From NCBI GenBank assembly GCA_046754125.1, contig JBHHVC010000002.1, positions 1 through 35,594 on the forward strand: DNA of 35,594 bases, given 5' to 3'. Made by a program: the position numbers and the translations under genes. Under the pieces are notes generated by a model, which was not told the origin of the DNA, searched no databases, and saw nothing but the letters and a program-made list of their open reading frames with translations. The DNA comes from Candidatus Zixiibacteriota bacterium. Lineage in GTDB: Bacteria; Zixibacteria; MSB-5A5; GN15; FEB-12. Positions 1 through 35,444 of the stretch are shown here, one piece after another (the first letter of the stretch is position 1; the number at the start of each line of letters is the position of its first letter).

Positions 1-197
1 ACTCCTCCACTGTCAAAGACTGACTGCAACGCCATCTACGACGCAACACGAGCAAACGCAGTTATTGCATAACCGCGCCAAAACAGAGGGTTGTCCTCTC
101 GCTTTTACTCAAGATCAAGAATGCCAATTCTCACGCCAAAAGTCAAGCACGACTGCTGCACTCGCGTGAGAGTACAGATCGTTCCGTGGCAGTTGGC

Positions 198-231
198 AAA
201 AAAGAAGGAGCCTTCCGAAGAAGGCCCCTCC
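198..231 (-). terminator. Rho-independent terminator of the 257..1183 gene
   Basis: Minus strand reads GGAGGGGCCTTC-TTCG-GAAGGCTCCTTC-TTTTTT: 12-bp stem with G-U pairs, cUUCGg tetraloop and U6 tail, 25 nt after the stop. Confidence 0.9.
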
Positions 232-256
232 AAGCCTGTCAATTTGGACCAGTCAA

Positions 257-1183
257 TTACCGCAACCAGGCGGCCGGTGAGCTTGCCTGACCGCTGTTGC
301 ATGTGTCCGTAACTGTCCATGTAGTTGTACTGTTATTGAAGGTCGTGGTTATGGTGCCGTTGTCGAAGGTGGCTGTTACATGCCAGGTGTCGTTGACGTT
401 CAGCGAGAAGGTACCCCCGCCATCGCCTTGCCCTGCGCAGGAAACGTTGACGGTAGTAATTGCGCTCATAGAACCGCTACTGGGGCACTCGTCGCTATCC
501 AGCACGATCACAACATTGTCTACACTTACCGAATTGTCCAGATTCATATCGCATGAGCCTGCACTGTCGGCAAAAGACAAATCTGCGGTCTCGCTCGTAG
601 TGCCGTTCAGTATGACTGGAACTGTGCTGTCGGGGGTCATGTTAGTGATGTCGAACTGTTGAACACCGGCAAGTACCGCGCTGCCGCCGCGAGCACTGAT
701 ATCCATGTTGGCACGAATCTTCATTGCATCGACGGTCGAATCAAACTCCGCCAGGGGACTTCCTGCATCCAGAATCTGAACGGAATCCGTGCCGGATATA
801 TCGGTGGTATCCAATGTACTGAGGTCAACTACATAGCCATCGAATGTGAAAACATGCCAGCCGTTGGTATAGGTGTATGATACCGAGTCAAAAACTGCGT
901 CGCCTTCCTGGAGGGCAAGGCTCGACACATGAAACTTGCCCGGAGCGCCAAGAGCGGGAACAGAGTCGATAAGGTCGAAACTCAAATCCATTCCCAGCCC
1001 AAAGGATTTCATGAATCCCTCATTGAAGACTGAGTCCTGAACGAACTGGAACTCGACAGCAGTCGTGTCTCCCTGCAATAGCTGGTCTGCACCGGTTGTT
1101 GCCTTGTCATCGCTACATCCGAATCCAATGGCCATCGCCAGTGCAATGACCGGGGCGATTGCAATTCTGGACCGTCGAATCAT
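257..1183 (-). CDS. Hypothetical acidic, beta-rich lipoprotein (308 aa)
   Basis: AGGAGGAG RBS before ATG; basic N-terminus, hydrophobic stretch and lipobox FGC-SDD; Asp/Thr/Ser-rich; terminator downstream. Confidence 0.85.
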   Translation of the reverse strand: MIRRSRIAIAPVIALAMAIGFGCSDDKATTGADQLLQGDTTAVEFQFVQDSVFNEGFMKSFGLGMDLSFDLIDSVPALGAPGKFHVSSLALQEGDAVFDSVSYTYTNGWHVFTFDGYVVDLSTLDTTDISGTDSVQILDAGSPLAEFDSTVDAMKIRANMDISARGGSAVLAGVQQFDITNMTPDSTVPVILNGTTSETADLSFADSAGSCDMNLDNSVSVDNVVIVLDSDECPSSGSMSAITTVNVSCAGQGDGGGTFSLNVNDTWHVTATFDNGTITTTFNNSTTTWTVTDTCNSGQASSPAAWLR

Positions 1184-1237
1184 ACTCTCCTCCTTTGCTC
1201 AGGGGCCAACTAGATTTCGGTATATTTCTTAGGCACT

Positions 1238-1265
1238 AGATCGGCCGACAGAGGGGTGATATTTA
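1238..1265 (-). promoter_or_regulatory. Sigma28/FliA-like promoter candidate
   Basis: TAAA-N16-GCCGATCT upstream of the lipoprotein; the same architecture recurs at 24830..24857. Confidence 0.45.
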
Positions 1266-1434
1266 GGACGAATTGCCTTATCAAACCAATCCTGCCTGAT
1301 AAGGTGTATGAACTGCTTCCGGGCACCATTCCTGCTCTCGGGCCAGACTGGCTGACCGTCGCCGACAGTATCAAGGGAGGGTGTTAGCTCTCTAAAGTGA
1401 TTCTGCTTTTCGAGTCCTTAACCGTATTATTAAC

Positions 1435-1465
1435 AAAAAAAGCGCCCCAAGAAATGGAGCGCTTT
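1435..1465 (-). terminator. Rho-independent terminator of the 1497..2400 gene
   Basis: Minus strand AAAGCGCTCCA-TTTCT-TGGGGCGCTTT followed by further Ts. Confidence 0.8.
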
Positions 1466-1496
1466 GGAGAATCCGGTCAAAATGTGGCTACGAGAT

Positions 1497-2400
1497 CTAC
1501 TCCGAACAGTCGTCGGTTGTTTCCTGCCAGAAAGTAGTGCCGTCGTCGTAGGTAACAGTGATGGATCCGTTGCCATTTGCCACTGCTTTGACATTCCATG
1601 TCCCGTGAATTGACAGCGAATCAGTGCCGATACCACCTTCGCGAGAGCAGGAGAAGTCAAAACTGGCTGTTCCCGTCAATGAACCGGAATTGGGGCAGGC
1701 GTTGCTGTCAGCCGGAAACACCAGTTCGACCAACGTCACATGCTCATCGACTGTAAACTCGCAGCCTACCAGTCCATCGGCAGAGTCTGTCATGTGAGCA
1801 GTGACCTCTTCATCGCCGGTTCCGTCCACTTGCACGAGTGTGTCGATATCGACAATCAAGCGGGTGAAATCGATTCTGTGACGTCCGATAATCTGTGCCG
1901 AGTCAGCTCCCGAATTGAACCGAAAGTCAGCGTGGAGTCGAGTCTTGACCGCCTCGAGGCTGTCCTCAGCCGGGAGATAATTGACTGGCACGCCAAGAAC
2001 GATCAGTTGCACCGAGTCAGTTCCCGTCAGGTTTACCGTATCACCTGCTGTTGGGTCGGTCAGGCGGGCTTTGAAATCGAAGATATGCCAGCCATCCAAA
2101 TAGTCGTAGCTAGTGACGGTGTCAATCGTGACCGAATCTCCCGCGCCCAGAGCGGCCGTCCAGTTCGGCCCTTTACCAGCGGCGCCGATTGGGCCAAACT
2201 GCGTCTCCAGAAGCGAAAAAGAGACCTCAAACGCCTGATCACCGCCTTCAAACAGATCGTCTCCAACCTGACCACTGACAAACTGAAAATCGGGGGAATT
2301 GGTATCTCCCGGTACTAGATTGGTGGTGACGCTGTTGTCATCATCGCGACAGCAACAACACAGCCACGCCCAGTGCGGTTATCAAACCTGCTTTCTTCAT
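1497..2400 (-). pseudogene. Lipoprotein paralogue of 257..1183, frameshifted in the signal peptide (pseudogene or sequencing error)
   Basis: AGGAGG RBS + ATG at 2400 gives MKKAGLITALGVAVLLLSR* (TGA 2343-2341). Another frame is open from ~2378 to 1497 and reads CRDDDNSVTTNLVPGDTNSPDFQFV...DGWHIFDF...GTDSVQ...CPNSGS...W, aligning with the neighbour (CSDDK..GDT...FQFV..GWHVFTF..GTDSVQ..CPSSGS). Confidence 0.8.
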
Positions 2401-2506
2401 AATACCTCCTGCCACTTTTCGGCGGTTTGAATAATGATATACCTATTAGACTGGTAAGTACACAAATAGGTTTCAGGTATCTAAAAACTGATTTGTTCCT
2501 GGCGGC

Positions 2507-3730
2507 TCAACGATTGCCGCTGCTCTGGCCCCATGCTTGTGGTCCACCATAGATGCCAAGGTGCGACACAGAGCCATCGGGATTATAGATTGCGCTGTCC
2601 CCGGCATTTACTGCCGGTGAATCCTTCTGTAATCGATAGTTGCCTTCACCAACGAAAAGCGGATCTATATCCTGGTTTCCATTCAGGCCGGATTGATCCC
2701 AGATGTCCTCATAGTTTCCTGCTTTGTTGTTCCAGACAATGTTATGTGCAAACTCCCACTTAGCCCAGTCGCCATAGTTCCAGACCCCGACACAGGGGCA
2801 GACCCATTTGTCGCGCCACCCGTTTTCGGTAATAATGTTATTGACTATACGGCCGCGCGATTCGGTCGACCAGGGAGCTACCCCGCAATTACCGTTATGG
2901 TGAACCACGTTGTTTGCGATGTCCATATACGACTTTCCAGTGGCGACGATTCCCCAGCCCAGGTTGTCGTGGACAAGATTGTTGTGGGCAATCACCCAGG
3001 CCGTCCCGAATGCGCCTATACCCTTCCAGTAACCTGAAATCTTATTTCGATAGGCCATAACGCAGGCATCCCATGTAACGCCGATGCCCGCGCCGCGACC
3101 GTCCTTGATCAGGCAATCAGAGATATTTGCCGAGGCGCCACGATACAATGCAATACCATCCCAACCGTTGTTCATGATACTACAGCCCGAAATCGTCAAT
3201 TCAGCTCCTTCACGTCCGAAAATTCCACCTATACCCACTATTACTGTCGTGTCATCCGAGCGGTTGTCGTTGTCGAGAATCCTGACATTCTCTATTGTCA
3301 CACGAGAACGCCGCACGACGATTGCGGCGTCGGTGGCATTCCCATCACTGTCTCGTCGACCGCCGGTGATGGTCAGATTCTTAACCACCGATCCGTTCGA
3401 GTTTTCAAAATAGAGGCCATAGCCGGCATTCGTAATGAGTCGACTACGTTTGTTGCCAATTAGAACCAGTGCTTTGCCCTTCACAACGAACCCGTAGCTG
3501 GCTTTCACCTCGGTACTCGGATCGAGACAGTTGCCGCACAATGGATCGACAAACTCGGTCGCTTTCGCCTGGAAATCCTTGTTGCCAATAATGAGTGTAT
3601 CACCATCGGCAGCGTAGTTTATGGCAGCCTGAAGATCGGAGCCCCGATCAACGGTGTAGACAGCGGCGATGACGTGCGGACCGAGAAAAAGAACAACTGC
3701 AAGTAATAGAACCAACTTTGGATATCTCAT
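2507..3730 (-). CDS. Secreted right-handed parallel beta-helix (pectin-lyase-like) protein (407 aa)
   Basis: Signal peptide, LQAAIN.A..GDT.II start motif, repeated I.NN/GI rungs, C-terminal DPLFV..NYRLQ.DSPAVNAG motif. Confidence 0.85.
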   Translation of the reverse strand: MRYPKLVLLLAVVLFLGPHVIAAVYTVDRGSDLQAAINYAADGDTLIIGNKDFQAKATEFVDPLCGNCLDPSTEVKASYGFVVKGKALVLIGNKRSRLITNAGYGLYFENSNGSVVKNLTITGGRRDSDGNATDAAIVVRRSRVTIENVRILDNDNRSDDTTVIVGIGGIFGREGAELTISGCSIMNNGWDGIALYRGASANISDCLIKDGRGAGIGVTWDACVMAYRNKISGYWKGIGAFGTAWVIAHNNLVHDNLGWGIVATGKSYMDIANNVVHHNGNCGVAPWSTESRGRIVNNIITENGWRDKWVCPCVGVWNYGDWAKWEFAHNIVWNNKAGNYEDIWDQSGLNGNQDIDPLFVGEGNYRLQKDSPAVNAGDSAIYNPDGSVSHLGIYGGPQAWGQSSGNR

Positions 3731-3736
3731 GCGGCT

Positions 3737-3765
3737 ACACTATCGAATTTGCCTGCACCGTGCAA
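3737..3765 (-). promoter_or_regulatory. Sigma70-type promoter, leaderless configuration
   Basis: TTGCAC-N17-TAGTGT-N6-ATG(3730); no Shine-Dalgarno. Confidence 0.5.
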
Positions 3766-3847
3766 GGAAAATCGACGCCTTCGAGTTACTTACCAGGGCG
3801 TTTTTTTTCTTGCCAACAGCAGCGCTAGCGGTTACGTACCATTGTAA

Positions 3848-3861
3848 TTACCTTAGGGTAA
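3848..3861. promoter_or_regulatory. Putative MntR/DtxR operator
   Basis: Inverted repeat TTACC-TTAG-GGTAA 21 nt before the regulator ATG, nested in a wider TTACGTAC...GTACGTAA palindrome (3832-3869). Confidence 0.55.
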
Positions 3862-3882
3862 GTACGTAATACGGAAAGCGTA

Positions 3883-4368
3883 ATGCTGACAGCAACACAA
3901 CAGGATTACATAGAAGTGATTTACCAGTTAATCACACAACATCCCCCGGGGGGGGTGCGTGTCAGCGATATCGCCGGACGGTTGGGAACACGTATGCCCA
4001 CAGTCACGCGTACTGTCCGCAAACTGACTCAACTCGGATTTCTGGTTCACCAGCCACGCCGATCAGTTGAACTTACGGCCAAAGGGACAAAGGTAGCGCG
4101 GGCCATCCGGCATCGCCACGAAGACCTGGTTACTTTTTTTACGGAAATCCTCAACTTGCCTTTGTCCCGTTCTGAGGCGGACGCCTGCCAGATTGAGCAT
4201 GGACTCTCGGTACAAAGCTCGCAGCGGCTGCATGAATTTCTGAACTACGTCGGGGAGCTCAGTGACGAGCAGCGACAGATCATTATGGCCTTTCGCAGCA
4301 GAAAAAGACGCGGAAGCAATGAATTTCGCCACCTGCCAAAGCAGAAAGTGGACGGATGGAGGGGGTAG
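3883..4368 (+). CDS. mntR: DtxR/MntR-family metal-dependent repressor
   Basis: QDYIEVIY, winged HTH (VSDIA.RLG...PTVT), LT..G...A, RH, ACQIEH; first gene of a metal ABC operon. Confidence 0.9.
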   Translation: MLTATQQDYIEVIYQLITQHPPGGVRVSDIAGRLGTRMPTVTRTVRKLTQLGFLVHQPRRSVELTAKGTKVARAIRHRHEDLVTFFTEILNLPLSRSEADACQIEHGLSVQSSQRLHEFLNYVGELSDEQRQIIMAFRSRKRRGSNEFRHLPKQKVDGWRG

Positions 4369-5297
4369 TGCGCTATAAATCACTAGCGGCCGTTTTCTTG
4401 ATATTGATGTCAGTTGCCATCAGCCTGTGCGGTTGTAACAAAACAACCCGCAAGCGCGGTAGTATGCTCAATATCGTGGCCACCACCAGTATGATCGCCG
4501 ATGCAGTGCGAACCATTGCCGGGGACAAGGTACATTTGGTAGCCCTGATGGGTCCGGGTGTCGATCCGCATTCGTACAAACCTACTAAAGGCGACATGGA
4601 CCGTTTGGGCGAGGCAGATATAGTCTTTTTCAACGGTCTGTTCTTGGAGGCTAAGATGGCCGAGATGCTCAAGAAGATGGGGCGATCGAGAGCCACGGTC
4701 GCGGCCGGTGAGGCAATTCCCGACTCGCTGCGTTGCTACCCGTCGGAGTTTGAAGGCCATCCCGATCCGCATGTATGGTTCGACATGTCTCTCTGGCAGC
4801 GGGTAGTCGACACCATAGGAACCGTTCTGGAATTGCGCGACAAAACTAACGCAGAGTGGTACCGTGCCAACCGCTCTGCATTCATCGACAGTCTGAACGA
4901 GTTACACAACTGGGTAGGAAGCCAAGTTGGCCTGATCGATTCTGCGCACCGTGTGCTTGTAACAGCGCACGACGCCTTCGGGTATTTTGGACGCGCCTAT
5001 GACATAGAGGTAGAAGGACTCCAGGGTATTTCAACGGTGACGGAGGCGGGGCTCTATGATGTAACAAAGATGGTTGACATGATTGTGAGCCGCAGGATCA
5101 AGGCTGTCTTTGTTGAGTCGTCGGTACCGCGCAAATCGATCGAGGCTGTTGTCGAGGGTTGCAGATCGCAGGGCCACGACGTGGTCATCGGCGGAGAGCT
5201 GTATTCCGACGCGATGGGCGAGCCGGGAACAGAAGAAGGAACATATTTTGGGATGGTCAGACACAACGTGCGCACGATAGTCGAGGCACTTAGATGA
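4356..5297 (+). CDS. troA: Mn/Zn/Fe ABC transporter substrate-binding lipoprotein (TroA/MntA family); start may be GTG 4368
   Basis: Lipobox LCGC; GVDPH.Y, DPHVW, HDAF.YF, LYSDAMG motifs of cluster A-I binding proteins. Confidence 0.93.
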   Translation: MEGVVRYKSLAAVFLILMSVAISLCGCNKTTRKRGSMLNIVATTSMIADAVRTIAGDKVHLVALMGPGVDPHSYKPTKGDMDRLGEADIVFFNGLFLEAKMAEMLKKMGRSRATVAAGEAIPDSLRCYPSEFEGHPDPHVWFDMSLWQRVVDTIGTVLELRDKTNAEWYRANRSAFIDSLNELHNWVGSQVGLIDSAHRVLVTAHDAFGYFGRAYDIEVEGLQGISTVTEAGLYDVTKMVDMIVSRRIKAVFVESSVPRKSIEAVVEGCRSQGHDVVIGGELYSDAMGEPGTEEGTYFGMVRHNVRTIVEALR

Positions 5298-6082
5298 CGG
5301 AGAAGACGATCGACAAACAAGGCGGAGAGATTGCTCCAATTGAAGTGCACGATCTGACCGTTGCTTACAGGAAGCGGCCCGTATTATGGGATATAGATTT
5401 CTCGTTACCCAACGGGAAACTGATCGGTCTGGTGGGGCCGAACGGTGCCGGTAAATCGACACTGATCAAAGCGATAATGGGACTCATGCCACTGTTGTCC
5501 GGCTTCGTCAAGATATACGGAGAAACTCTCGACCGTCACAGGCAAAGGGTGGCTTACGTGCCGCAGCGAGAATCTGTCGACTGGGACTTTCCTACTAACG
5601 CGCTGGATGTTGTGACAATGGGGCGTTACGGTCGCCTGACACTGTTTGGGCGACCGTCTGGCAGCGATCGGAAGGCTGCTTTGGAAGCGCTCGAAAAGGT
5701 CGGGATGAGCGATCTGGCTCATCGGCAGATCAGTCAGCTTTCAGGTGGTCAACAGCAGCGAGTGTTTCTTGCACGCGCACTGGTGCAGGGTGCGGATGTC
5801 TACCTGATGGACGAGCCGTTTGCCGGAGTCGATGCCGCAACCGAAAAGGCGATCGTCGAATTGCTCAAAGACCTCAAGGCGCGGTCGAAGACAGTGCTGG
5901 TAGTGCATCATGATTTGCATACGGTTCCGGAATACTTCGATTGGGTGATGTTTCTCAATATGCGGTTAGTGAAGTTTGGAAGGACAAAGGACGTATTCAC
6001 TGATGATAATCTACGCCTGACCTATGGAGGACAGTTGAATATCCTCAGTGAAGTGGCCGAAAAGGTGGGGCGTCGACGGTAA
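5294..6082 (+). CDS. troB: Metal ABC transporter ATP-binding protein
   Basis: Walker A GPNGAGKST, LSGGQQQR, Walker B LMDEP, HHD; ATGA overlap with troA. Confidence 0.95.
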   Translation: MTEKTIDKQGGEIAPIEVHDLTVAYRKRPVLWDIDFSLPNGKLIGLVGPNGAGKSTLIKAIMGLMPLLSGFVKIYGETLDRHRQRVAYVPQRESVDWDFPTNALDVVTMGRYGRLTLFGRPSGSDRKAALEALEKVGMSDLAHRQISQLSGGQQQRVFLARALVQGADVYLMDEPFAGVDAATEKAIVELLKDLKARSKTVLVVHHDLHTVPEYFDWVMFLNMRLVKFGRTKDVFTDDNLRLTYGGQLNILSEVAEKVGRRR

Positions 6083-6093
6083 AAAGGACGTGC

Positions 6094-7413
6094 GTGGTGG
6101 ATTTCTGGGACCTTACAATTCGGTTTTTTTCGCTGACCGATGCCAACGTTCGTCACGTTCTGGCCGGATCAGTACTTCTCGGCGGCGCTGCCGGGGGGCT
6201 AGGTTGCTTTGCTTACCTTCAAAAGCGATCGCTGATTGGCGATGCTCTAGCTCATGCCGCGCTGCCGGGAGTAGCCCTTGCGTTCATTGTGGTCGGGCAG
6301 AAAGAGCTGCTATGGCTGTTGCTCGGCGCCGCAGCAACCGGCTGGTTGGGCGCAATCAGTGTCAATCTGATAGCGCGTTACAGTAGAATCAAGCCGGACG
6401 CCGCTCTTGGTATTGTGTTGTCTGTGTTCTTTGGTCTCGGCATAGTTCTGCTGACATCCATTCAAAAATCCGGATCCGGCTCGCTGGCCGGTTTAGACAA
6501 GTTCCTCTTCGGCCAGGCCTCGGCTATGGCTGCTGAGGATGTCCGAATTCTTGCTGTAGTCGGCCTGTCGATGCTGGGGGCTGTCTTTGTTTTCTTCCCG
6601 CGATTGAAACTCGTCGCCTTCGATCCGGAGGCAGCACGAGTTCTTGGAATAAGAGTTGGCTGGTGGGAGTTCTTTATTACAACCATGATTGTCTTTTCTG
6701 TTACAATCGGTCTGCAGGCTGTCGGCGTGGTCCTGATGGCTGCATTGTTGATCACGCCGGCCGCGTCCGCGCGGCAATGGACCGACCGCCTTCCGACAAT
6801 GATTATATTTGCCTCAGTATTCGGGATGATTGCCGGGCTGGTTGGGGCCTATGTCTCGTTTCTGGCTCCGCGCTTTCCTACCGGCCCATGGATCGTTGTG
6901 GCGGTTTCAGTCATCTTCGGTATCTCGCTGCTCTTTGCACCGGGGCGGGGAGTCGTCAGTCGGATGAGGCAACTCTGGATGAGCCGTGGCAAAATGACGA
7001 GAGAACACATTCTTAAAGTACTTTTTCGTTCGGGCCAGACGGCAGGCGAGTACCAGGTCAGATACTCAATGAAGCAGATCGGCCGCATGTGGTCGTTCGA
7101 TGCGAGAGGTCTTCGGAGGGGACTTGCACAACTCGTACGCAGCGGCGCGTTGGACAAAGAAGTTGACGGATTCACACTAACAGAAAGTGGCATGATCGAA
7201 GGTGCGAGAGTGCTACGATTGCACCGACTTTGGGAAGTTTACCTGACACGCTTTCTTGACCTGCCGCAGGACCATGTCCATCGCGACGCAGAAGAGATGG
7301 AACATATAATTACTCCCGAAATCGAGGCGCAACTCGAAGGGCTGCTCGACCAACCGGAGTTCGATCCCCACCGCCAGGAGATTCCCTACATCGGTCGGAA
7401 GGACACGACATGA
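6094..7413 (+). CDS. troC: Metal ABC permease (ABC-3 family) fused to a C-terminal DtxR-like domain
   Basis: GDALAHAALPG, FLFGQ, AFDPE.A, AVGVVLM permease motifs; C-terminal ~140 aa with LTESG...G..V.RLHRLWEVYL...VHRDAEEMEH...P.FDPH...IP. Confidence 0.9.
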   Translation: MVDFWDLTIRFFSLTDANVRHVLAGSVLLGGAAGGLGCFAYLQKRSLIGDALAHAALPGVALAFIVVGQKELLWLLLGAAATGWLGAISVNLIARYSRIKPDAALGIVLSVFFGLGIVLLTSIQKSGSGSLAGLDKFLFGQASAMAAEDVRILAVVGLSMLGAVFVFFPRLKLVAFDPEAARVLGIRVGWWEFFITTMIVFSVTIGLQAVGVVLMAALLITPAASARQWTDRLPTMIIFASVFGMIAGLVGAYVSFLAPRFPTGPWIVVAVSVIFGISLLFAPGRGVVSRMRQLWMSRGKMTREHILKVLFRSGQTAGEYQVRYSMKQIGRMWSFDARGLRRGLAQLVRSGALDKEVDGFTLTESGMIEGARVLRLHRLWEVYLTRFLDLPQDHVHRDAEEMEHIITPEIEAQLEGLLDQPEFDPHRQEIPYIGRKDTT

Positions 7414-8300
7414 CAGCTGACGCGTGGGTTATCCTGACAGCCGTGTTAGCGGCCACCGCCTGCGGCCTGATAGGCAGTTTCTTAGTGCTGCGACAGAATG
7501 CAATGCTTGGCGATGCTATCTCTCATGCCGTGCTCCCCGGGCTGGTTTTGGCCTTCCTGATTACATCGAGCCGACATGTCGTGCCGATGCTGATCGGTGC
7601 CGGCGTGATGGGACTGGTAACTGCCTATCTCACCGAGCTCCTTGCGAGGAGCAATCGACTGTACAAGGATGCTGCACTTGGCGTAGTTTTCACGTTCCTG
7701 TTTTCGGTCGGCGTCATCCTGATTGCGAGGTACGCCGGGTCGGTCGATCTTGATCAGGAATGTGTACTTTATGGTGAAATAGCATACACGCCATACGACA
7801 CATTTGTTGTCGGCGGCACTGACTTCGGCCCGAGGGCGACGTGGATCCTTGGCGGAGTGCTGCTGGCCAACATTCTTTTCATAGGGCTGTTTTACAAACA
7901 GCTCAAGATCACATCATTCGACCCCACTACTGCTGATGCCATTGGAATATCGTCGCGCCTGTGGCATTACCTGCTTATGACTATGGTATCAATGACGGTT
8001 GTGGCAGCGTTCGAGTCGGTGGGAGCCATCCTGGTTGTGGCAATGCTAATAATCCCGGGAGCCACCGCATATCTCTTGTCCAACAGACTTATATTTGTCC
8101 TGCTTCTATCGGTACTGGTTGGAAGTGCCTGTGCAGTCCTTGGATTTATTGGCGCCACCTATTTCGATACTTCAATTGCGGGGTTTATGGCTGTGTCGGG
8201 TGGCTTGTTGTTCGTGCTGACACTTACCGGCGTATCAGTAGCTCGCCTGTATGTACGCAAGCACATGTCACCGGACCCAACAATCAGCCAGACAGTCTAA
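7410..8300 (+). CDS. troD: Metal ABC permease (ABC-3 family)
   Basis: GDAISHAVLPG, VLYGEI, SFDP, AFESVGAILV; ATGA overlap with troC. Confidence 0.92.
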   Translation: MTADAWVILTAVLAATACGLIGSFLVLRQNAMLGDAISHAVLPGLVLAFLITSSRHVVPMLIGAGVMGLVTAYLTELLARSNRLYKDAALGVVFTFLFSVGVILIARYAGSVDLDQECVLYGEIAYTPYDTFVVGGTDFGPRATWILGGVLLANILFIGLFYKQLKITSFDPTTADAIGISSRLWHYLLMTMVSMTVVAAFESVGAILVVAMLIIPGATAYLLSNRLIFVLLLSVLVGSACAVLGFIGATYFDTSIAGFMAVSGGLLFVLTLTGVSVARLYVRKHMSPDPTISQTV

Positions 8301-24979: not shown

Positions 24980-25690
24980 CTACTCTATCTGTTGGTCTAA
25001 CCCGGTTCTCTTGGAATTGAATAATCTACTACCAATTCCTCTTACCAATTTATCAATATACAGAAAATACTGGGGAGCCTCATTTTGTGCCATAGTTGCT
25101 TGAATCAACCCTTGGCCTATCATGAAATCAGCTATTCTAGGCTCATCTTCTTCATCTGGTACTATTGTATCATGATTAAATCTCATGCCAGTAACTGGTA
25201 CTGTACTTTCGCCAAAAATCTTCTTTTTATCTGAATGTCCATAAGCATTTCTAAACCTTTTCCTGAATTCATGCAGTTGTTTTTTTTCATCTTTAGTGTG
25301 TTTCCCTTTTTTACACGCACAGTTGATTGTTGTATCAAGATTGGCATCATTGTACTTTTCTTGTCCTTTCGAATACTTTTCCACAAAAGAACTGACAGAT
25401 GTTCCACTTCGTTCTTCGTCCGTCTGTTTCACCTCGTTACCATCGGAAATAATCAACGCGTATTTTATCAAGCTCTCCATGAGATGATTAGTGAGAGCAA
25501 TTGCAGCTTGACATAAACCAAACGTTATGCAAAGACAGATTTCATCACGTAAGGGATCGAGTTCAGGCCACTCATAGTTGTTTTGATAAGAATCTCTGAT
25601 GGTCAAATAATGACGGTCAATAAATTCATTTCTCGAGTCACCAATTTCATCTATTTCTTCGGCGAGCTTCTTGATATCTTTTGCATTCAT
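24980..25690 (-). CDS. AT-rich hypothetical protein, HEPN-like (Rx4H)
   Basis: Helical protein with N-terminal ..AAIAL..HLMESLIK and FRNAYGH motif; visibly lower GC than the flanks; own TTGCGT-N18-TATCAT promoter candidate at 25703-25732. Confidence 0.7.
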   Translation of the reverse strand: MNAKDIKKLAEEIDEIGDSRNEFIDRHYLTIRDSYQNNYEWPELDPLRDEICLCITFGLCQAAIALTNHLMESLIKYALIISDGNEVKQTDEERSGTSVSSFVEKYSKGQEKYNDANLDTTINCACKKGKHTKDEKKQLHEFRKRFRNAYGHSDKKKIFGESTVPVTGMRFNHDTIVPDEEDEPRIADFMIGQGLIQATMAQNEAPQYFLYIDKLVRGIGSRLFNSKRTGLDQQIE

Positions 25691-29355: not shown

Positions 29356-29384
29356 ATTGTAGGTACTCGGCAGGGAGTTGACAA
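29356..29384 (-). promoter_or_regulatory. Sigma70 promoter of the nucleotidyltransferase-metK-ahcY unit
   Basis: TTGTCA-N17-TACAAT. Confidence 0.7.
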
Positions 29385-29421: not shown

Positions 29422-30057
29422 CTAGAATATATGAGAAAAAGTACCTACCCAGTCACCCGCCAGAAACTGAACGCGGCCTATCAGGAGCGATACCCGCCCC
29501 ATCACCGTGTAACCGAAATGTGCTCCGAAGGAGATCATAATAAACCAGATTCCAACCCGCGCCGTAACCCCGAGAACACCGGTGTGCTCATGAGAGAAGT
29601 AGAAATAGATCAAGGTCGAAATAACGCCAACGATAACTACTAGCGACAAAAACCACTGGGAGAATCCATCGCTTGCAGCCAGCGACAACATGGTTGCCTG
29701 CATCTGCGGCAGCACCAGCCCATGCAACTGCGTGGTAAGAAAAACTCCCGATGTTATGCCCATAACAGCAGCCAGAGGGATACGCGACAACCAGGAATAC
29801 TTCGCGAAAAAGCGAGAAAACATTAGAACTCCAAGTATCCCCGGAATGAGTATCCACCAGTCGCCGCCCGCCAATGGGTCCAATAGCTTCTGTACAATGA
29901 TCGTCTCCCAGATCAGTCCGACCTGGTATCCGGCAGTCAGCCCCGCAAAAATGTGCTCGGCCAGCCTGTAGACCGGGTTGTCCTTGTACAGAAAGGAGAA
30001 CAAGGCGAGAGTAAAAAAAGCAGTCAGCCAGATTTCAAAAATCTCAAAACCGCTCAC
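29422..30057 (-). CDS. Uncharacterised ~6-TM integral membrane protein (gene 4 of operon)
   Basis: GTGA overlap with the upstream stop; SFLYKDNP.YR.AEH, GAHFGYTVMGR. Confidence 0.85.
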   Translation of the reverse strand: MSGFEIFEIWLTAFFTLALFSFLYKDNPVYRLAEHIFAGLTAGYQVGLIWETIIVQKLLDPLAGGDWWILIPGILGVLMFSRFFAKYSWLSRIPLAAVMGITSGVFLTTQLHGLVLPQMQATMLSLAASDGFSQWFLSLVVIVGVISTLIYFYFSHEHTGVLGVTARVGIWFIMISFGAHFGYTVMGRVSLLIGRVQFLAGDWVGTFSHIF

Positions 30058-30887
30058 GCCATCACCCTTTTCTTTTTTCCGCCAACAAAGAAGGCGATGT
30101 TACCCAACACCACCATCGCAATTATCAACAGGTGGACCAGCGACTGAATGTCCATACCCAGATAGGCTGTCCCCGGCTTGTCGAGCAGGATTTCGTACTC
30201 GGCTGCGCCCTTCATTCCTCCCAGCAATCCGACAACTTGTCCCGCGCCAACAAAGGCATAGTACTTTGGAGCCATTACTGCAGTGGCGCCGATTCCCATC
30301 GGGACTGAGTAGCCGGCATTGACAATAGATACCCAATAATCTGCGGTGGCATTGTCAGCCACTTCGAAGATGAACTCGATTTGTTCATAATTAACGACAG
30401 AATCCATAAGCGGTAGCTCCGCGAGCGGAGTGCCATAGTAGTCGGTTGGAAATATCGACTCGATCGAGATGCCCATTCCCTTAAGAACAGAAACGTACCC
30501 GTACTTGTAGCCGAGATTGACGTAATCGACTGCGTAAACCTTGTCGTACTCTGCGGCAATTCGATGAGTCACTTCATCGGCCATAGAGGGGCCGCCCAGA
30601 GGTATATTGCTGAGCGTGATAATTCGGCAGTCCTTTTGAAAAAAGTGGCGTGCGGCAGCAACAGCCATCGGTTCCGTCTCGGCTGCTGTGGAAGGGTAGT
30701 AGTCAAAAACCAGCATGACTGTAGAGGAATCGGGTAGATTGTCCACTGCCTCATAAAATGCCCGAACCTCGGGCGTGACCCTCACCGGGAAATGAGCCGG
30801 GAATATAAACGGGACAATAACGGCCACCGAAACCAACAGGTAGATCCAACGTCGGTCCATCTGTTCACACCATTCCCAGAACGTCAT
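30054..30887 (-). CDS. Uncharacterised membrane-anchored alpha/beta protein (gene 3; start corrected to ATG 30887)
   Basis: N- and C-terminal TMs around a soluble domain with FDY.P...AE..PM, YVNLGY, GLLGG.KGAAEYE. Confidence 0.85.
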   Translation of the reverse strand: MTFWEWCEQMDRRWIYLLVSVAVIVPFIFPAHFPVRVTPEVRAFYEAVDNLPDSSTVMLVFDYYPSTAAETEPMAVAAARHFFQKDCRIITLSNIPLGGPSMADEVTHRIAAEYDKVYAVDYVNLGYKYGYVSVLKGMGISIESIFPTDYYGTPLAELPLMDSVVNYEQIEFIFEVADNATADYWVSIVNAGYSVPMGIGATAVMAPKYYAFVGAGQVVGLLGGMKGAAEYEILLDKPGTAYLGMDIQSLVHLLIIAMVVLGNIAFFVGGKKKRVMA

Positions 30888-30891
30888 CGTA

Positions 30892-31554
30892 CTATCCCTT
30901 ACCCATATAGGTTCGTTCAATGCCGAGAATAATGCGCAACGACATCGCCGCCGCACCGAGTGCTGCTCCGATGATAATAGCCCGTTGAACGGCCAAATTG
31001 GCTCCGTTCATAATGTACGTATTCAGAAATGACGGGATATCGCCCGGAAACAGACTAAGGAATGCCTCGCCCATTGGTACGCGCCAGAGCATGACAGCGG
31101 TGGCAGTAATCAATAGTATGGTTGCCTCGGCGTTTCGAGCACGAAAGGCGCGATAGGCCGCCGATGCGATATAAAAGGCCAGCGTTGCGAACATTGTCGA
31201 CATCATTGGCATTTGTAACTGCACGAACAGCCAGTCATAAACTGATCCGCCGGTGGTACCAAACAGAGGGCTCCATGATTTTGGCAGAACAGACGGTATC
31301 GCCATGACAAGTACTGATATAATCGTCACGAGTTTGTAGCCCCAGTTTTCTTCGTGCCGACTGACCGCCCGCAAACTGACACGCATGATCGACACAACAC
31401 CCAGCAGGAGTGTAAAACCACCAATAATAATAAGCCAGTCAAGCAATTCGCTGGTAAGCCTGCCGACAAAAGTAGTCTGCTCGTTGAAAAAAAAGGAAAC
31501 GACCATAACCAGGCCTGAAAGAAGCGCGACTGCTACGGGAAGAGTGGTTCTCAT
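30892..31554 (-). CDS. Uncharacterised ~6-TM integral membrane protein (gene 2)
   Basis: Hydrophobic throughout; FYIASAAYRAFRARN.EA, RAIIIG, LRIILGIER. Confidence 0.85.
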   Translation of the reverse strand: MRTTLPVAVALLSGLVMVVSFFFNEQTTFVGRLTSELLDWLIIIGGFTLLLGVVSIMRVSLRAVSRHEENWGYKLVTIISVLVMAIPSVLPKSWSPLFGTTGGSVYDWLFVQLQMPMMSTMFATLAFYIASAAYRAFRARNAEATILLITATAVMLWRVPMGEAFLSLFPGDIPSFLNTYIMNGANLAVQRAIIIGAALGAAAMSLRIILGIERTYMGKG

Positions 31555-31571
31555 TCGGTATGATCCATTAC

Positions 31572-32444
31572 TTACACTGCCTTGAACCAGCTCATATAGG
31601 TTTCACCGGCACCAAACGATGCCAGTACCACACCCAAGAGTATCAGTACGACTATTATGACTTTCACCAGGTCCTGTCCCTTAAGTCCGCCCAGCATGAT
31701 CGGCTCGTGCGACAGGTAGGCCGAGGCGGCAAAGAGTTCTTCTCCCATGAGAGTATAGTCGCAGGCTGCAATAAAAAACGGCAACTGCTCCGGTTTGGCG
31801 GTACCGGCGATCTGGATAGAGCCTGCGGCGTTTCCTGTCTCGGCCAGCAGCAGGGATTCGGCGAAAAACGCACCCATATAGATATTTGTTGCGGGTCGTT
31901 CGCGCATCATATAGCCGTTGACAGTCGCGGTAAACGCGAATTGTTCGCCGGCAACGTATCGCACAGTATCTTTGTCGTACGACTCTCGTTTCCCCATTTC
32001 TACATATGCCTGCTCGACTACCTCCTGTCCCGCCGCCAATACAAGCGGGTAACGCACCGGAACATACAAAGGCGTTTCATACTGAGCCGTAATCCGAGCA
32101 ACCCTGCCAAGTATTGATATCCCAGCTATCGTATCGATGGCGTCGAGTTCATCGATTCCCGGAATATACAACACCGGCCGTCCCATCTCTGTGGCCCGAC
32201 CGACCGCCTCCTCAACAGCATCGAGGCCAGGTATCTTGCGCAGAAAAAGAGCCTTCCCCTGTTTTGCCCACATGGTGAAAACCAGGACGGCAATTGAAAA
32301 GACAACGATAAGGACAAGAGCGTTAATTCGATTGGTAAGAAACATCCCCTGGGAGTCTTGTGCCGACACGGCCGCAGCGCAAACAGTGATCAGCAAGAAC
32401 GGTCCTGCTATGTGTGCTGCCTTAATGTATCGACCGGGATTCAC
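31572..32444 (-). CDS. DUF6754-like membrane-anchored protein (gene 1; likely start GTG 32444)
   Basis: Signal-like ..AAVSA, TM, LRKIPGLDAVEEAVGRATEMGRPV, GAFFAESL..AE.G, Q.PFF..CDY.LMGEELFAASAYL, C-terminal TM; family name from recall. Confidence 0.8.
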   Translation of the reverse strand: MNPGRYIKAAHIAGPFLLITVCAAAVSAQDSQGMFLTNRINALVLIVVFSIAVLVFTMWAKQGKALFLRKIPGLDAVEEAVGRATEMGRPVLYIPGIDELDAIDTIAGISILGRVARITAQYETPLYVPVRYPLVLAAGQEVVEQAYVEMGKRESYDKDTVRYVAGEQFAFTATVNGYMMRERPATNIYMGAFFAESLLLAETGNAAGSIQIAGTAKPEQLPFFIAACDYTLMGEELFAASAYLSHEPIMLGGLKGQDLVKVIIVVLILLGVVLASFGAGETYMSWFKAV

Positions 32445-32451
32445 AGCAGAG

Positions 32452-32480
32452 AATATCAATACTCTGTCACCGATTGTCAA
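32452..32480 (-). promoter_or_regulatory. Sigma70-type promoter of the four-gene operon, leaderless
   Basis: TTGACA-N17-GATATT-N7-GTG(32444). Confidence 0.55.
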
Positions 32481-32555
32481 TGGCGAATACTGGTAACAAA
32501 ACAGGGCTGGTACTACAGGTGTCGATGACACTTATCATTCAACGTGCCGATGGAG

Positions 32556-35444
32556 CTATTTGATCAAGAGCATCTTGCGCGTCTGCACAAATTCGCCCGC
32601 AGTGATACGGTAAAAGTAGACACCGCTGGCAACAGCATCTCCGACGGCGTCAGTGCCGTCAAACTCCGCGCTGTATCGTCCCGCCGGTTGTTCGACATCG
32701 ACTATTGTACGGACCAGCTGCCCCAGACCATTGTATACCTGTATCCGAACATGGGAACGAAGAGCGAGCGAATAGTCTATTTGCGTAGACGGATTGAATG
32801 GATTCGGATAGTTCTGGGCTAGTGCAAATGTAAAGGGCAATGTTGTGCCCGGGGGGATATCAGTTGAAGTGCCACTGGGAAAGGCGCCTATATCGTTGCG
32901 TGAACCGTCCTGATCGTTGTACTGAGCATCAGGGTGGCCTGCGTCGATACAGGGAGAGCTATCCGACAAGTTGTAATTCTGGGCGTCGGCGTTGACAAAC
33001 TCGGGGTCGACATGAAGATCGTGCGGCCCCTGAACCGAACCCATATCGTAATCACGGTTATTATCCCATAAGTTGTTATAGTCCGATCCAGACTCGCTGC
33101 CAAACAACCCGCCAACCGATGAGTTGGTGATGATATTATTGAGCGCCAGAACATTGTCGGCGGCGAGAACCGCGATCCTATTATTGTCAAAAGTGTTGTT
33201 CACAAGCAAGACGTGTCCGAACTGAGCAACAACTACCACCAAGCTTTGATTGTTGGCAAACAGGTTGTGCTCTAACACCGCATCCGATTCAGTAATACTG
33301 ACTGTCCTCCCCCCGGATGAAAAGTGATCAATGAAGCGATTGTGTGAGATGACTATATCAGTCGTCTGATCAATGTCGAGCACCATCTGTGCATTCACGC
33401 CGGCAAAGGTAATTCCCCGTATTTCAAGCTGGGTTGCACCTCCTGTAAGATTGACCAGGCGGGTGTAGGAACTGTCTGTAGGGGGCTGGATTATCGTGGC
33501 CTCGGCTCCAGCGTCCCCGACCAGATTAACTCTCTGATCCTTGAAGTCGATCAGTTCACTATAGGTGCCGGGTGAGAGCAGCACCGTGTCGCCAAACTGG
33601 GCGACATCGATTGCCGCCTGAATTGTCAACTGTTCACCGGGAACTTCGATAGCTCTGCTCGAGCGCGTCACAAACGACACTGGCTGCGAATAGTCCGAGA
33701 ATTCGTAGCCGTCAAATACACGAACGCGCCACCAGTATTCGGCCCCGATCTCAAATCCAGAAAAAACCCGAGACTTAGTGCTGCCTGCCTGCTCGGCGAC
33801 TCCACTGTCCGTGCGAACAACATTGGATAGACCCGGATCGCTGTAAACCTCGAACTGGTATTGCAGAGGATCGCCCTCGGGATCGGACGCGTTGTTAACC
33901 TCCAACTCAACCCAGTCGGCCACAACCAGATTCTGCTCAATCGGCGTCAGTGGCTCAGGAGCGGTCGGTAAACTGTTCATCGTAAACCGTCCGACTCTCC
34001 AGCTGCCCCACTCAAACCCATTGTTTACACGAATGCGGAAGTAGTAGGTTGTGCCATCGGTCAAAACAGAGCTACCTGCATAGACAATTGAGGTGTCGCT
34101 CCCAAAGATCTGTCCACTGACCCACATTTCAGCTATGGACCAGTCGGCGTCACTGCCGACCTCAATATCGAAAGCTGCCTGAGCGCCAAGAGTGTCCATA
34201 AACGACCAGAAAAATGTAGGCGTATGATCAACGACATGAGAAGAGTTATCGTCCCCCAAATTTGGCCGAAAGGCCAACGGCAAATCGGCTGATTGTAAGA
34301 ACTTCAGGATGTATAACTCACCGCTCAGGTTCGAGGCATAGACATTCCCGGATGTCGTGTGTGGAAAAACCCCCCAACAACCATTGAACTGTGCAATGTC
34401 ACCATCGGGCCAGGTGTCAAAAAGTCCAATCTCGTGGACAAACGATGGCACAGTCAAGTCCACCGCCGACACGCCCGATTCATAGTGCGAAAGGAACAGG
34501 ATGTTATCCTGGATTTGTGCATTGTGGGCTAAATTCGACGGTCCCAGGTATTCCCCGACAAGGCTGATATTGTTCAAGTCGCCAATGTTCCATATTTTCA
34601 CGGTTTTTACTGCAGTTTCCTCGGTTGTGGCGACAAACTTGCCGTCGTTGGTCGGCCAGATGTTGTGAACGTAGCCGGCGTTAGGAATCTGGACTCGCTT
34701 GAGAAGGACTGGAGCAAGCTTGTTCGACATGTCCCAAATCGAAAATGAGGGATCAGACCCCTCGGCCATGTAGGCGGTGTCGTTGTGAGCAAACAAATCG
34801 TGGATACCGTTGATCGGTCCAAAACTGTTCACATATAACGGATTTTCCGGGTCGGCCAGATCGAATATGTGGACCGAGGGAGAATTGAATCCTTCAACAT
34901 AGGTAAAGCCTTTCACCGTGTCTATAGTCATGTTGTGCGAGGTGTAAGAGGCTATGCCGTTGACTGGAACGGATCGGATCAACTTCACCGAATCCGGCAG
35001 GTATTGCATGTCCATTACCATTAGTCCGGCGTTTGGGCCGCTGCACTCGCTGACAGCATAACAATAGTGGCCGAAGGTCTTGATGTCCCGCCAGAAGAAA
35101 GCGCAACTGCTGTTCGGACCGGGAACAGTATCGATAACGGCCAGATGAGTGACATCGACAAAAACGATCCCCTCATATATTCCCATGATGGCATATTCAT
35201 TTCCGTCCGGACCTTGCCAGCCCCAGCAGTCCGATCCGGCAAAGTTGCCGAACTTGAACACAGCCACCGAGTCAAAGCCGTAGCTGGTAGCCAGCGCCTG
35301 CGATCCGGGATTGTAGCTGTTCTTGCCCGAACCAGACGGGCTTTCGAACATTTCATAGTAGTCCTCTGGCAGATCCAGAGGAACAGCCATAGCGGTAGCA
35401 GCGACTAAGAATAGAACAGAGAGTAGAATCGTCAGGTTTTTCAT
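32556..35444 (-). CDS. Secreted multidomain protein: choice-of-anchor B/LVIVD propeller, two Fn3-like domains, beta-helix, FlgD-Ig/T9SS-like C-terminal tail (962 aa)
   Basis: Signal peptide; GSDCWGW...EYAIMG, WRDIK, SHN, HD, HN, SHY, G.WGVFP; YYFRIR and YWWRVR; TIQAAID; FALAQNYPNPFNPST...SGVYFYRI...KMLLIK. Confidence 0.88.
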   Translation of the reverse strand: MKNLTILLSVLFLVAATAMAVPLDLPEDYYEMFESPSGSGKNSYNPGSQALATSYGFDSVAVFKFGNFAGSDCWGWQGPDGNEYAIMGIYEGIVFVDVTHLAVIDTVPGPNSSCAFFWRDIKTFGHYCYAVSECSGPNAGLMVMDMQYLPDSVKLIRSVPVNGIASYTSHNMTIDTVKGFTYVEGFNSPSVHIFDLADPENPLYVNSFGPINGIHDLFAHNDTAYMAEGSDPSFSIWDMSNKLAPVLLKRVQIPNAGYVHNIWPTNDGKFVATTEETAVKTVKIWNIGDLNNISLVGEYLGPSNLAHNAQIQDNILFLSHYESGVSAVDLTVPSFVHEIGLFDTWPDGDIAQFNGCWGVFPHTTSGNVYASNLSGELYILKFLQSADLPLAFRPNLGDDNSSHVVDHTPTFFWSFMDTLGAQAAFDIEVGSDADWSIAEMWVSGQIFGSDTSIVYAGSSVLTDGTTYYFRIRVNNGFEWGSWRVGRFTMNSLPTAPEPLTPIEQNLVVADWVELEVNNASDPEGDPLQYQFEVYSDPGLSNVVRTDSGVAEQAGSTKSRVFSGFEIGAEYWWRVRVFDGYEFSDYSQPVSFVTRSSRAIEVPGEQLTIQAAIDVAQFGDTVLLSPGTYSELIDFKDQRVNLVGDAGAEATIIQPPTDSSYTRLVNLTGGATQLEIRGITFAGVNAQMVLDIDQTTDIVISHNRFIDHFSSGGRTVSITESDAVLEHNLFANNQSLVVVVAQFGHVLLVNNTFDNNRIAVLAADNVLALNNIITNSSVGGLFGSESGSDYNNLWDNNRDYDMGSVQGPHDLHVDPEFVNADAQNYNLSDSSPCIDAGHPDAQYNDQDGSRNDIGAFPSGTSTDIPPGTTLPFTFALAQNYPNPFNPSTQIDYSLALRSHVRIQVYNGLGQLVRTIVDVEQPAGRYSAEFDGTDAVGDAVASGVYFYRITAGEFVQTRKMLLIK

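Follow-up and report, generated by a model that had tools for sequence, protein, structure and literature searches.

The subject of this analysis is a group of four genes in a 35,594-nucleotide (nt) stretch of DNA, called the window below, which comprises positions 1 to 35,594 (forward strand) of contig JBHHVC010000002.1 from assembly GCA_046754125.1 of a Candidatus Zixiibacteriota bacterium. The genes are co-directional on the minus strand and extend over 29422-32444 when the probable start of gene 1 is used; the tightly packed open reading frames (ORFs) span 29422-32531. They are termed gene 1 (31572-32444), gene 2 (30892-31554), gene 3 (30054-30887) and gene 4 (29422-30057, with a GTG start), and their products are subunits A, B, C and D, respectively. 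Genes 1 and 2 are separated by 17 nt, genes 2 and 3 by 4 nt, and genes 3 and 4 share a GTGA overlap; the ORF coordinates agree with the four-gene operon described in an earlier, model-made reading of the letters alone (the sequence-only reading). The four genes are one copy of a widespread four-protein inner-membrane unit that matches no known kind.

The operon had been credited with its own promoter and with a separate one for the next unit. A sigma-70-like match, TTGACA-17-GATATT, is present 5′ of gene 1 (32452-32480, minus strand; 10/12, judged against the consensus only). A second promoter-like match (29356-29384, minus strand, 10/12) belongs to the next gene, an unrelated NTP transferase (Pfam PF00483; 28356-29324, minus strand), and forms the downstream boundary of the four-gene unit. 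These two top-scoring sites occupy the two flanking intergenic gaps, and this position is what sets them apart; the total number of promoter-like sites in the region, six against 3.6 ± 1.6 in shuffled sequences, is not above chance, and the gene 1 start abuts the hexamer. A terminator-like site 3′ of gene 4 was not found.

The start of gene 1 bears on the promoter. An alternative start, ATG 32345, exists, but translation probably begins upstream of it, at GTG 32444 or TTG 32459, and would yield a cleavable signal peptide, because orthologues keep a hydrophobic signal-peptide-like segment ending in A-x-A-Q directly before the DUF6754 part. GTG 32444 is 8 nt past the -10-like hexamer (32457-32452), and at so short a distance only a nearly leaderless mRNA would reconcile the promoter call, taken literally, with this start.

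Gene 1 encodes a full-length member of the Pfam family DUF6754 (PF20539; E 3.2e-116, 387.4 bits against a cut-off of 27, profile positions 4-250 of 257), which places the suggested likeness to DUF6754 far over the gathering score. Genes 2-4 have no Pfam or NCBIfam match at E ≤ 1 beyond chance-level rows and no sequence match in the PDB, and family-profile searches of the PDB with all four proteins gave 0 hits at E ≤ 1. The families are nevertheless large: 1936 representative clusters match gene 2 at E ≤ 1e-3, and the 3359 homologues of gene 3 are all named hypothetical. A full-text literature search found no paper on DUF6754, PF20539 or PF13941, the last being the family of the ATPase described below.

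Known transporter types were considered in turn. In Pfam and NCBIfam there is no match at E ≤ 1 to ABC, ABC-2 or ABC_transp_aux, and no Walker A motif (hidden Markov model [HMM] and motif level), nor is there a match at E ≤ 1 to DctQ/DctM, TctA/TctB, EcfT or S-components, the marks of TRAP, TTT and ECF systems. Genes 2 and 4 do not match the Rnf-Nqr Pfam family at E ≤ 1, and the FtsX and MacB families have no HMM match in Pfam or NCBIfam. Together with the PDB profile searches, these results uphold the statement that the operon does not correspond to ABC, TRAP, TTT or ECF transporters. A motif scan of the four proteins for Walker A, CxxCH and Cys clusters was likewise empty, as had been reported for Walker A, CxxCH and Fe-S motifs, and the gene 2 and gene 4 products are without any cysteine.

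The folds of subunits A and C are alike. AlphaFold2 models of the gene 1 and gene 3 products (predicted local distance difference test [pLDDT] 92.2 and 93.6) have an almost identical order of elements, i.e., first a transmembrane (TM) helix, then a (beta-alpha)6 domain and finally a second, long TM helix, which bears out the common TM - alpha/beta - TM topology proposed for them. The similar ends that had been quoted for the two proteins are the final strand and helix of each domain. Searches with Foldseek and VIA using both domains returned generic Rossmann matches only (KTN/RCK, sirtuin/DHS-like and transhydrogenase dIII were considered). Family-averaged hydropathy indicates six TM segments in the gene 2 product, clearly, and about six in that of gene 4, less clearly, in agreement with the ~6-TM estimate for both.

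The motifs with charged and polar residues pointed out in genes 2 and 4 are real and conserved. Gene 4 has Y30 (96%) and E34 (100%), with conserved YKDNPxYxxAEH and SxEH motifs; gene 2 has R135 (100%), R138 (97%) and R191 (96%). In gene 3, R12, R13, H252 and N263 are invariant and the C-terminal tail is rich in K/R. Subunit A is the most conserved of the four, with a mean column identity of 58% (33 invariant columns, 92 sequences), compared with 29% for B, 43% for C and 31% for D.

The orientations proposed for all subunits draw on loop charge bias and on features of relatives. Subunit A would be N-out (N terminus outside) with its Rossmann-like DUF6754 domain in the cytoplasm between TM1 and TM2, because a signal peptide is present and paralogues bear an ectodomain before TM1. 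Subunit C appears to be N-in with a Rossmann-like domain facing the periplasm, because an invariant Arg-Arg precedes TM1 and the C-terminal tail is basic; its TM2 carries the invariant His and Asn and the tail would lie inside. By loop charge bias subunit B reads as a clear six-TM N-in/C-in protein, with the conserved YRAFRAR loop in the cytoplasm and an outside TM3-TM4 loop that varies among relatives. Subunit D is probably N-out/C-out, because a relative has an N-terminal signal anchor and ectodomain (P0414), helix-hairpin-helix (HhH) inserts lie in the TM4-TM5 loop, and some relatives have an additional C-terminal TM followed by a basic tail. Another gene 4 relative, P0418, has an insert between TM2 and TM3, and others between TM4 and TM5. 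One apparent fusion of gene 3 and gene 4, P0410, would contradict the orientation of D if real; it is a single-member cluster and possibly a frameshift artefact. This and the two other apparent gene 3-gene 4 fusions, P0409 and P0426, were set aside as possible artefacts, all being single-member clusters and P0426 visibly frameshifted.

Since genes 1 and 3 share a fold and have opposite membrane orientations, A-B and C-D may be mutually inverted, an arrangement compatible with the idea of pseudo-symmetry. At the sequence level the pseudo-symmetric assembly put forward in the sequence-only reading is undetectable: profile comparison with hhalign gave a probability of 1.9% for gene 1 against gene 3 and 0.8% for gene 2 against gene 4, and homology was not detected. 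A four-chain complex prediction gave 0.77-0.78 with gene 4 as the partner. Controls in which the partner was replaced gave 0.00 and 0.00 and the control in which gene 3 was replaced gave 0.72, so the chain that gene 4 contacts is ambiguous and the prediction was given no weight for or against a complex.

The four genes are found together in many other genomes. A scan of species-representative genomes yielded 80 loci (L006-L085), whose record titles include Zixibacteria, Eisenbacteria, WOR-3, Stahlbacteria, Cloacimonadota, Edwardsbacteria, Rifleibacterium, a Singulisphaera-labelled metagenome-assembled genome (MAG; Planctomycetota), a Deltaproteobacteria MAG and a Nitrospirota MAG. These loci contain 109 copies of gene 1, of which 92 were testable, i.e., had at least 2300 nt of downstream DNA. 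Homologues of genes 2, 3 and 4 follow gene 1 in this order within 4.2 kb in 89 of the 92 copies, and the four genes thus co-occur elsewhere as a unit. One exception (L028) has the identical gene order stretched over 4.8 kb and another (L078) contains 300 masked bases; the third is described below. Compared with four orthologous loci, the window genes show nonsynonymous divergence (dN) of 0.11-0.33 and saturated synonymous divergence (dS), with dN/dS ≤ 0.14 where computable, and all four are under strong purifying selection.

The unit is also repeated within genomes. The 2.9 Mb genome from which the window comes has five DUF6754 loci, each followed by paralogues of genes 2-4 in the same order; two modules are in tandem on contig C159, and contig C207 opens with the tail of yet another. 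The genome carries at least five modules. PF20539 is present in all 101 sampled genomes of the Zixibacteria phylum, with 2-6 matches each, mostly five, although match numbers are not exact copy numbers. Gene 1 of the window falls in the best-conserved orthologue group (65-84% identity in L006-L028). In this group a signal peptide alone precedes TM1; L028, a more distant member, retains an Fn3-like segment. The window copy is solitary and is not in a tandem array next to the ATPase pair.

Copies differ mainly in what they would expose outside the cell: judged from the sequences, the cytoplasmic DUF6754 domain is nearly invariant, and the outward parts are variable. Long forms of gene 1 carry fn3, PKD or PQQ-type propeller domains, but most of the 120 that were listed are without a recognised ectodomain family; fn3 (PF00041) is assigned to seven of the 120 in a precomputed Pfam column, and six long forms scanned with Pfam showed neither fn3 nor a recognised ectodomain. 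Among 23 long relatives of gene 2 that were scanned, inserts are located in the TM3-TM4 outside loop and consist of one WD40, one TPR and otherwise unrecognised sequences. Of 40 longer forms of gene 4, 14 have a ComEA-type HhH domain by the precomputed column. Five of these were scanned, with HhH scores of 29.6-45.8 bits (cut-off 27); the domain of P0413 maps to residues 132-162, in the TM4-TM5 loop. Some HhH-bearing forms also contain a CheB-like segment. The periplasmic domain of subunit C shows no comparable variation. In the window copy, A is without an ectodomain and neither B nor D bears an insert; this copy may be a 'basal' unit.

A second set of genes accompanies the module. In the flanks of the 80 loci, a MutL/GlmL-like actin-fold protein (PF13941, ∼620-690 amino acids [aa]) was found in 15 and a protein of ∼375 aa, termed X, in 12; the two genes are positioned upstream, downstream or divergent relative to the module arrays. 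The genome of the window encodes a MutL-like ATPase and X alongside the gene 1-4 module, as a single pair on contig C121, with the MutL-like gene at 979-2844 (E 1.3e-129) and X at 3634-4761. This X is 55% identical to the X protein of L032, and the MutL-like protein, of ∼620 aa, matches the Pfam MutL family PF13941 with E 4.9e-129. Against PADLOC, 0 anti-phage defence families were obtained at E ≤ 0.01 for all six proteins, i.e., the four subunits, the MutL-like protein and X.

The pairing holds across phyla. Of the 101 Zixibacteria genomes sampled for PF20539, 100 also have PF13941, mostly with one match each, and this gene often adjoins a tandem module array (G029, G099 and G011); in G029 the MutL-like gene (C2:185412-186848, minus strand) is divergent from DUF6754 matches at 187805 and 191300 (plus strand). 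In the phylum of G101, whose record is labelled Nitrospirota, 18 of the 151 genomes carry DUF6754 and 19 carry PF13941. Each of the 18 with DUF6754 has a MutL match at E ≤ 1e-126, and the 133 negatives have one MutL match, a weak fragment at a contig end. The G102 phylum (Singulisphaera-labelled record; n = 151, completeness not given) has 40 genomes with both families, two with DUF6754 only, four with MutL only and 105 with neither. DUF6754 genomes drawn from other phyla also carry PF13941 (5/5), and all eight loci fetched from the G101 phylum have the order MutL-X-gene 1-gene 2-gene 3-gene 4. Two proposals of the sequence-only reading are not supported by these counts. The operon had been called self-contained, yet it tracks the MutL-like gene in 100/101, 18/18 and 40/42 DUF6754-positive genomes and joins it in a six-gene operon at those eight loci; and it had been taken for ATP-independent, which is contradicted by the near-perfect co-occurrence with a GlmL/MutL-like actin-fold ATPase gene in three phyla.

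The MutL-like protein appears to be a separate branch of the GlmL/MutL superfamily, because it scores below the NCBIfam cut-offs for GlmL (NF040745, 235.7 against 475; ornithine GlmL-related, 225.6 against 600; glmL_fam, 171.6 against 204). By sequence reading it retains the phosphate-1 motif. The clusters nearest to X in an atlas search have RnfC_N, NQRA_N or Biotin_lipoyl in a minority of their members (10-30%); in a further cluster of the atlas, of 876 aa, MutL (98% of members) and an X-like fold are combined. A profile search of the PDB with X returned chance-level rows only.

Several other features surround the ATPase genes. On C121, a small signal-anchored membrane protein (2784-3620) is encoded between the MutL-like and X genes, and directly after the pair a MotA/ExbB-family gene is followed by ExbD-, TonB- and TolB-looking ORFs, as judged from their sequences (979-8226). 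A fragment at 2-529 (minus strand) of the same contig resembles the ectodomain of a divergent gene 1 paralogue. In a genome of the G102 phylum (G358:C20:254623-262435), a DUF6754 match and nearby MutL matches have in-frame stops (TGA and TAA), and the whole system may be decaying there.

The interpretation that we favour, and to which we give about an even chance of being right, is that the four proteins form one of several exchangeable membrane modules of a machine driven by ATP: the MutL-X pair would dock on subunit A and the module would move an external ligand, with uptake as the most likely direction. Subunits A, B, C and D would constitute one membrane module of a six-component system, in which the nearly invariant Rossmann-like domain of A is placed in the cytoplasm, the conserved one of C in the periplasm, and the polytopic B and D have opposite orientations. 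The one, mostly single-copy, cytoplasmic pair of the actin-fold ATPase and the barrel-sandwich protein X (that on C121) would serve all five or more paralogous modules, docking on the A domain of each. ATP turnover would then be relayed via B and D to the outer face, where the variable ectodomains of other copies (Fn3, PKD, propeller, TPR and HhH) would hold the ligand, and each module would move or work on a different external substrate. The window copy would represent the phylum-wide orthologue, which has kept the signal peptide and lost the ectodomain. A shared energiser is suggested because the cytoplasmic face is invariant, the outer faces are variable, and there are many modules and one ATPase pair. 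The data themselves show the gene set and its conservation, the folds, the co-occurrence and the variability of the outward parts; docking, coupling to ATP and transport are what we infer here.

Several points weigh against this interpretation. The window operon may act independently, since the ATPase pair is encoded at a distance and the operon is preceded by a promoter-like site of its own, and the window copy may have no external ligand-binding part like those of its paralogues. The one true exception to the cassette, L026 (6911-9211), has an orthologous gene 1 with a signal peptide and lacks genes 2-4. Hydrolysis of ATP by the MutL-like protein is itself presumed, given its GlmL scores below the cut-offs, and no protein of the GlmL family is known to drive work at the membrane. 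As related genomes are not independent, the co-occurrence counts show association and overstate the support. At L026, gene 1 is followed by two tandem copies of a Cys-rich secreted protein of ∼205-224 aa; none of the other 91 copies shows a clear interruption of the cassette.

A more specific form of the interpretation is doubtful. Here the actin-fold ATPase, together with an NqrA-like adaptor, would energise a heterotetrameric core whose antiparallel halves are A-B and C-D. Such an assembly would be a primary active transporter of a new class, belonging to none of the ABC, P-type and rotary families; the modules would import polymers, and the D variants with the ComEA-type HhH domain would handle DNA.

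Another explanation, which we consider unlikely, is a mechanotransmission machine that works on the envelope or in export, like FtsEX, LolCDE or MacB, with cytoplasmic ATP turnover setting periplasmic domains in motion so that surface material is assembled, remodelled or released. The periplasmic domain of subunit C between two TM helices would fit such a machine, as would the position of the MutL-X pair on C121 directly upstream of tolQ-, tolR- and tolB-like genes and the secreted protein of the type-IX-secretion kind encoded just upstream of the operon in the window. The neighbouring genes vary by lineage, however, and there is no HMM match to the FtsX or MacB families. In addition, the nearest look-alike atlas clusters, which are unverified relatives, are commonest in Bacillota and Chloroflexota, and this makes an outer-membrane-specific function improbable.

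The original idea, in which the four proteins need neither partners nor ATP and act as a secondary transporter or ion translocator, fares marginally worse and is likewise unlikely. The window operon is solitary, contains no ATPase gene and has its own promoter-like site, and polar residues in or near the membrane are conserved (H252 and N263 of gene 3, R191 of gene 2, T16 and S21 of gene 4), all of which would suit a translocator. Against this stand the almost strict co-occurrence with MutL-X and the six-gene operon elsewhere, the lack of a match to any transporter family, and the fact that conservation peaks in a cytoplasmic Rossmann-like domain and not in a membrane segment. Equally poor are the prospects of a receptor array, in which the modules would be sensors whose variable ectodomains and invariant cytoplasmic domain signal to one shared ASKHA-type kinase or ATPase: the variable outside, the invariant inside and the many modules per cytoplasmic partner would agree with it, and propeller, Fn3 and TPR domains are common in sensors, but a sensor would hardly need four membrane subunits with ∼16 TM helices, the examined loci have no linked output domain or regulator, and the window orthologue lacks an ectodomain yet is among the best-conserved copies.

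Of catalogued systems, the closest is the unstudied DUF6754 (PF20539) cassette itself. Gene 1 of the window is a full-length member at 387 bits, with order and partners as in the 89 of 92 copies; it differs from most DUF6754 paralogues in that these bear an N-terminal ectodomain, whereas the window copy has none and stands alone, not in an array by the ATPase pair. In ECF-type and ABC importers one energising module is common to several membrane components. The system described here is similar in having one cytoplasmic ATPase pair per genome for 2-6 membrane modules, an invariant presumed docking surface and variable ligand-facing parts. Unlike those importers, it has no match to an ABC ATPase, Walker A, EcfT or an S-component, and its presumed motor has the actin (ASKHA) fold.

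The Rnf/Nqr core offers another comparison. RnfA and RnfE are an oppositely oriented six-TM pair, and the gene 2 and gene 4 products, of ∼210-220 aa and about six TM segments each, are apparently opposite in orientation as well. X resembles the RnfC_N/NqrA barrel-sandwich subunit through its nearest atlas clusters, with RnfC_N, NQRA_N or Biotin_lipoyl in the minority of members given above. The window proteins differ in that genes 2 and 4 have no Rnf-Nqr match or cysteine and no flavin or Fe-S subunit is linked. MacB, FtsEX and LolCDE would be similar in manner of working, with a periplasmic alpha/beta domain between two TM helices and a cytoplasmic ATPase; they differ in ATPase fold and subunit make-up, and there is no sequence match. 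The partner ATPase resembles GlmL/MutL, the accessory protein of glutamate mutase, in its match to PF13941. It differs from GlmL in length (∼620 aa against ∼460), in its scores below the NCBIfam cut-offs and in its linkage to membrane modules, not to a mutase.

Some neighbouring genes should be mentioned. Directly upstream of the operon, at 32556-35444 (minus strand), the window encodes a 962-aa secreted protein with an Ig-like domain, a right-handed beta-helix and a C-terminal sorting domain of the type-IX-secretion kind; the Por_Secre_tail score of 26.1 bits is just below the cut-off, and FlgD_ig scores 34.1 bits. Farther away, the segment 25001-26000 has a G+C content of 0.407, compared with ∼0.52 elsewhere, and contains an ORF of 236 aa (24980-25690, minus strand) that belongs to no Pfam family. 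In close relatives (L009, 67-2923, and 11 other loci), genes for a PEP-utilising PtsI-like enzyme and a bifunctional PGI/SIS protein lie just upstream of the window-type module, and the module is followed, there as in the window, by NTP transferase, metK and ahcY. These five (PtsI, PGI, NTP transferase, metK and ahcY) were rejected as clues to function, since they represent synteny among close relatives only.

In five of the eight loci fetched from Nitrospirota-labelled genomes, gene 4 is followed by a Memo-like cytoplasmic gene (PF01875, E ∼1e-38 to 1e-41): L092 6513-7760, L098 14321-15562, L095 13961-15238, L094 5461-6729 and L096 5090-6976. As this gene follows the module in one lineage only, it too was discarded as a functional clue. 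An apparent fusion of gene 4 with the Memo-like gene in L096, a 628-aa ORF, is an over-extended ORF and not a fusion.

The module recurs in Eisenbacteria, WOR-3, Cloacimonadota, Riflebacteria and in Planctomycetota- and Nitrospirota-labelled genomes, and no relative of any of its four proteins has been studied. Its strict pairing with a single ATPase gene offers a direct point of entry for experiments. If the favoured interpretation is true, ATP would be coupled to membrane work in a new way, by a machine with an actin-fold ATPase as its motor, and a role would be assigned to thousands of 'hypothetical' genes in uncultured lineages.

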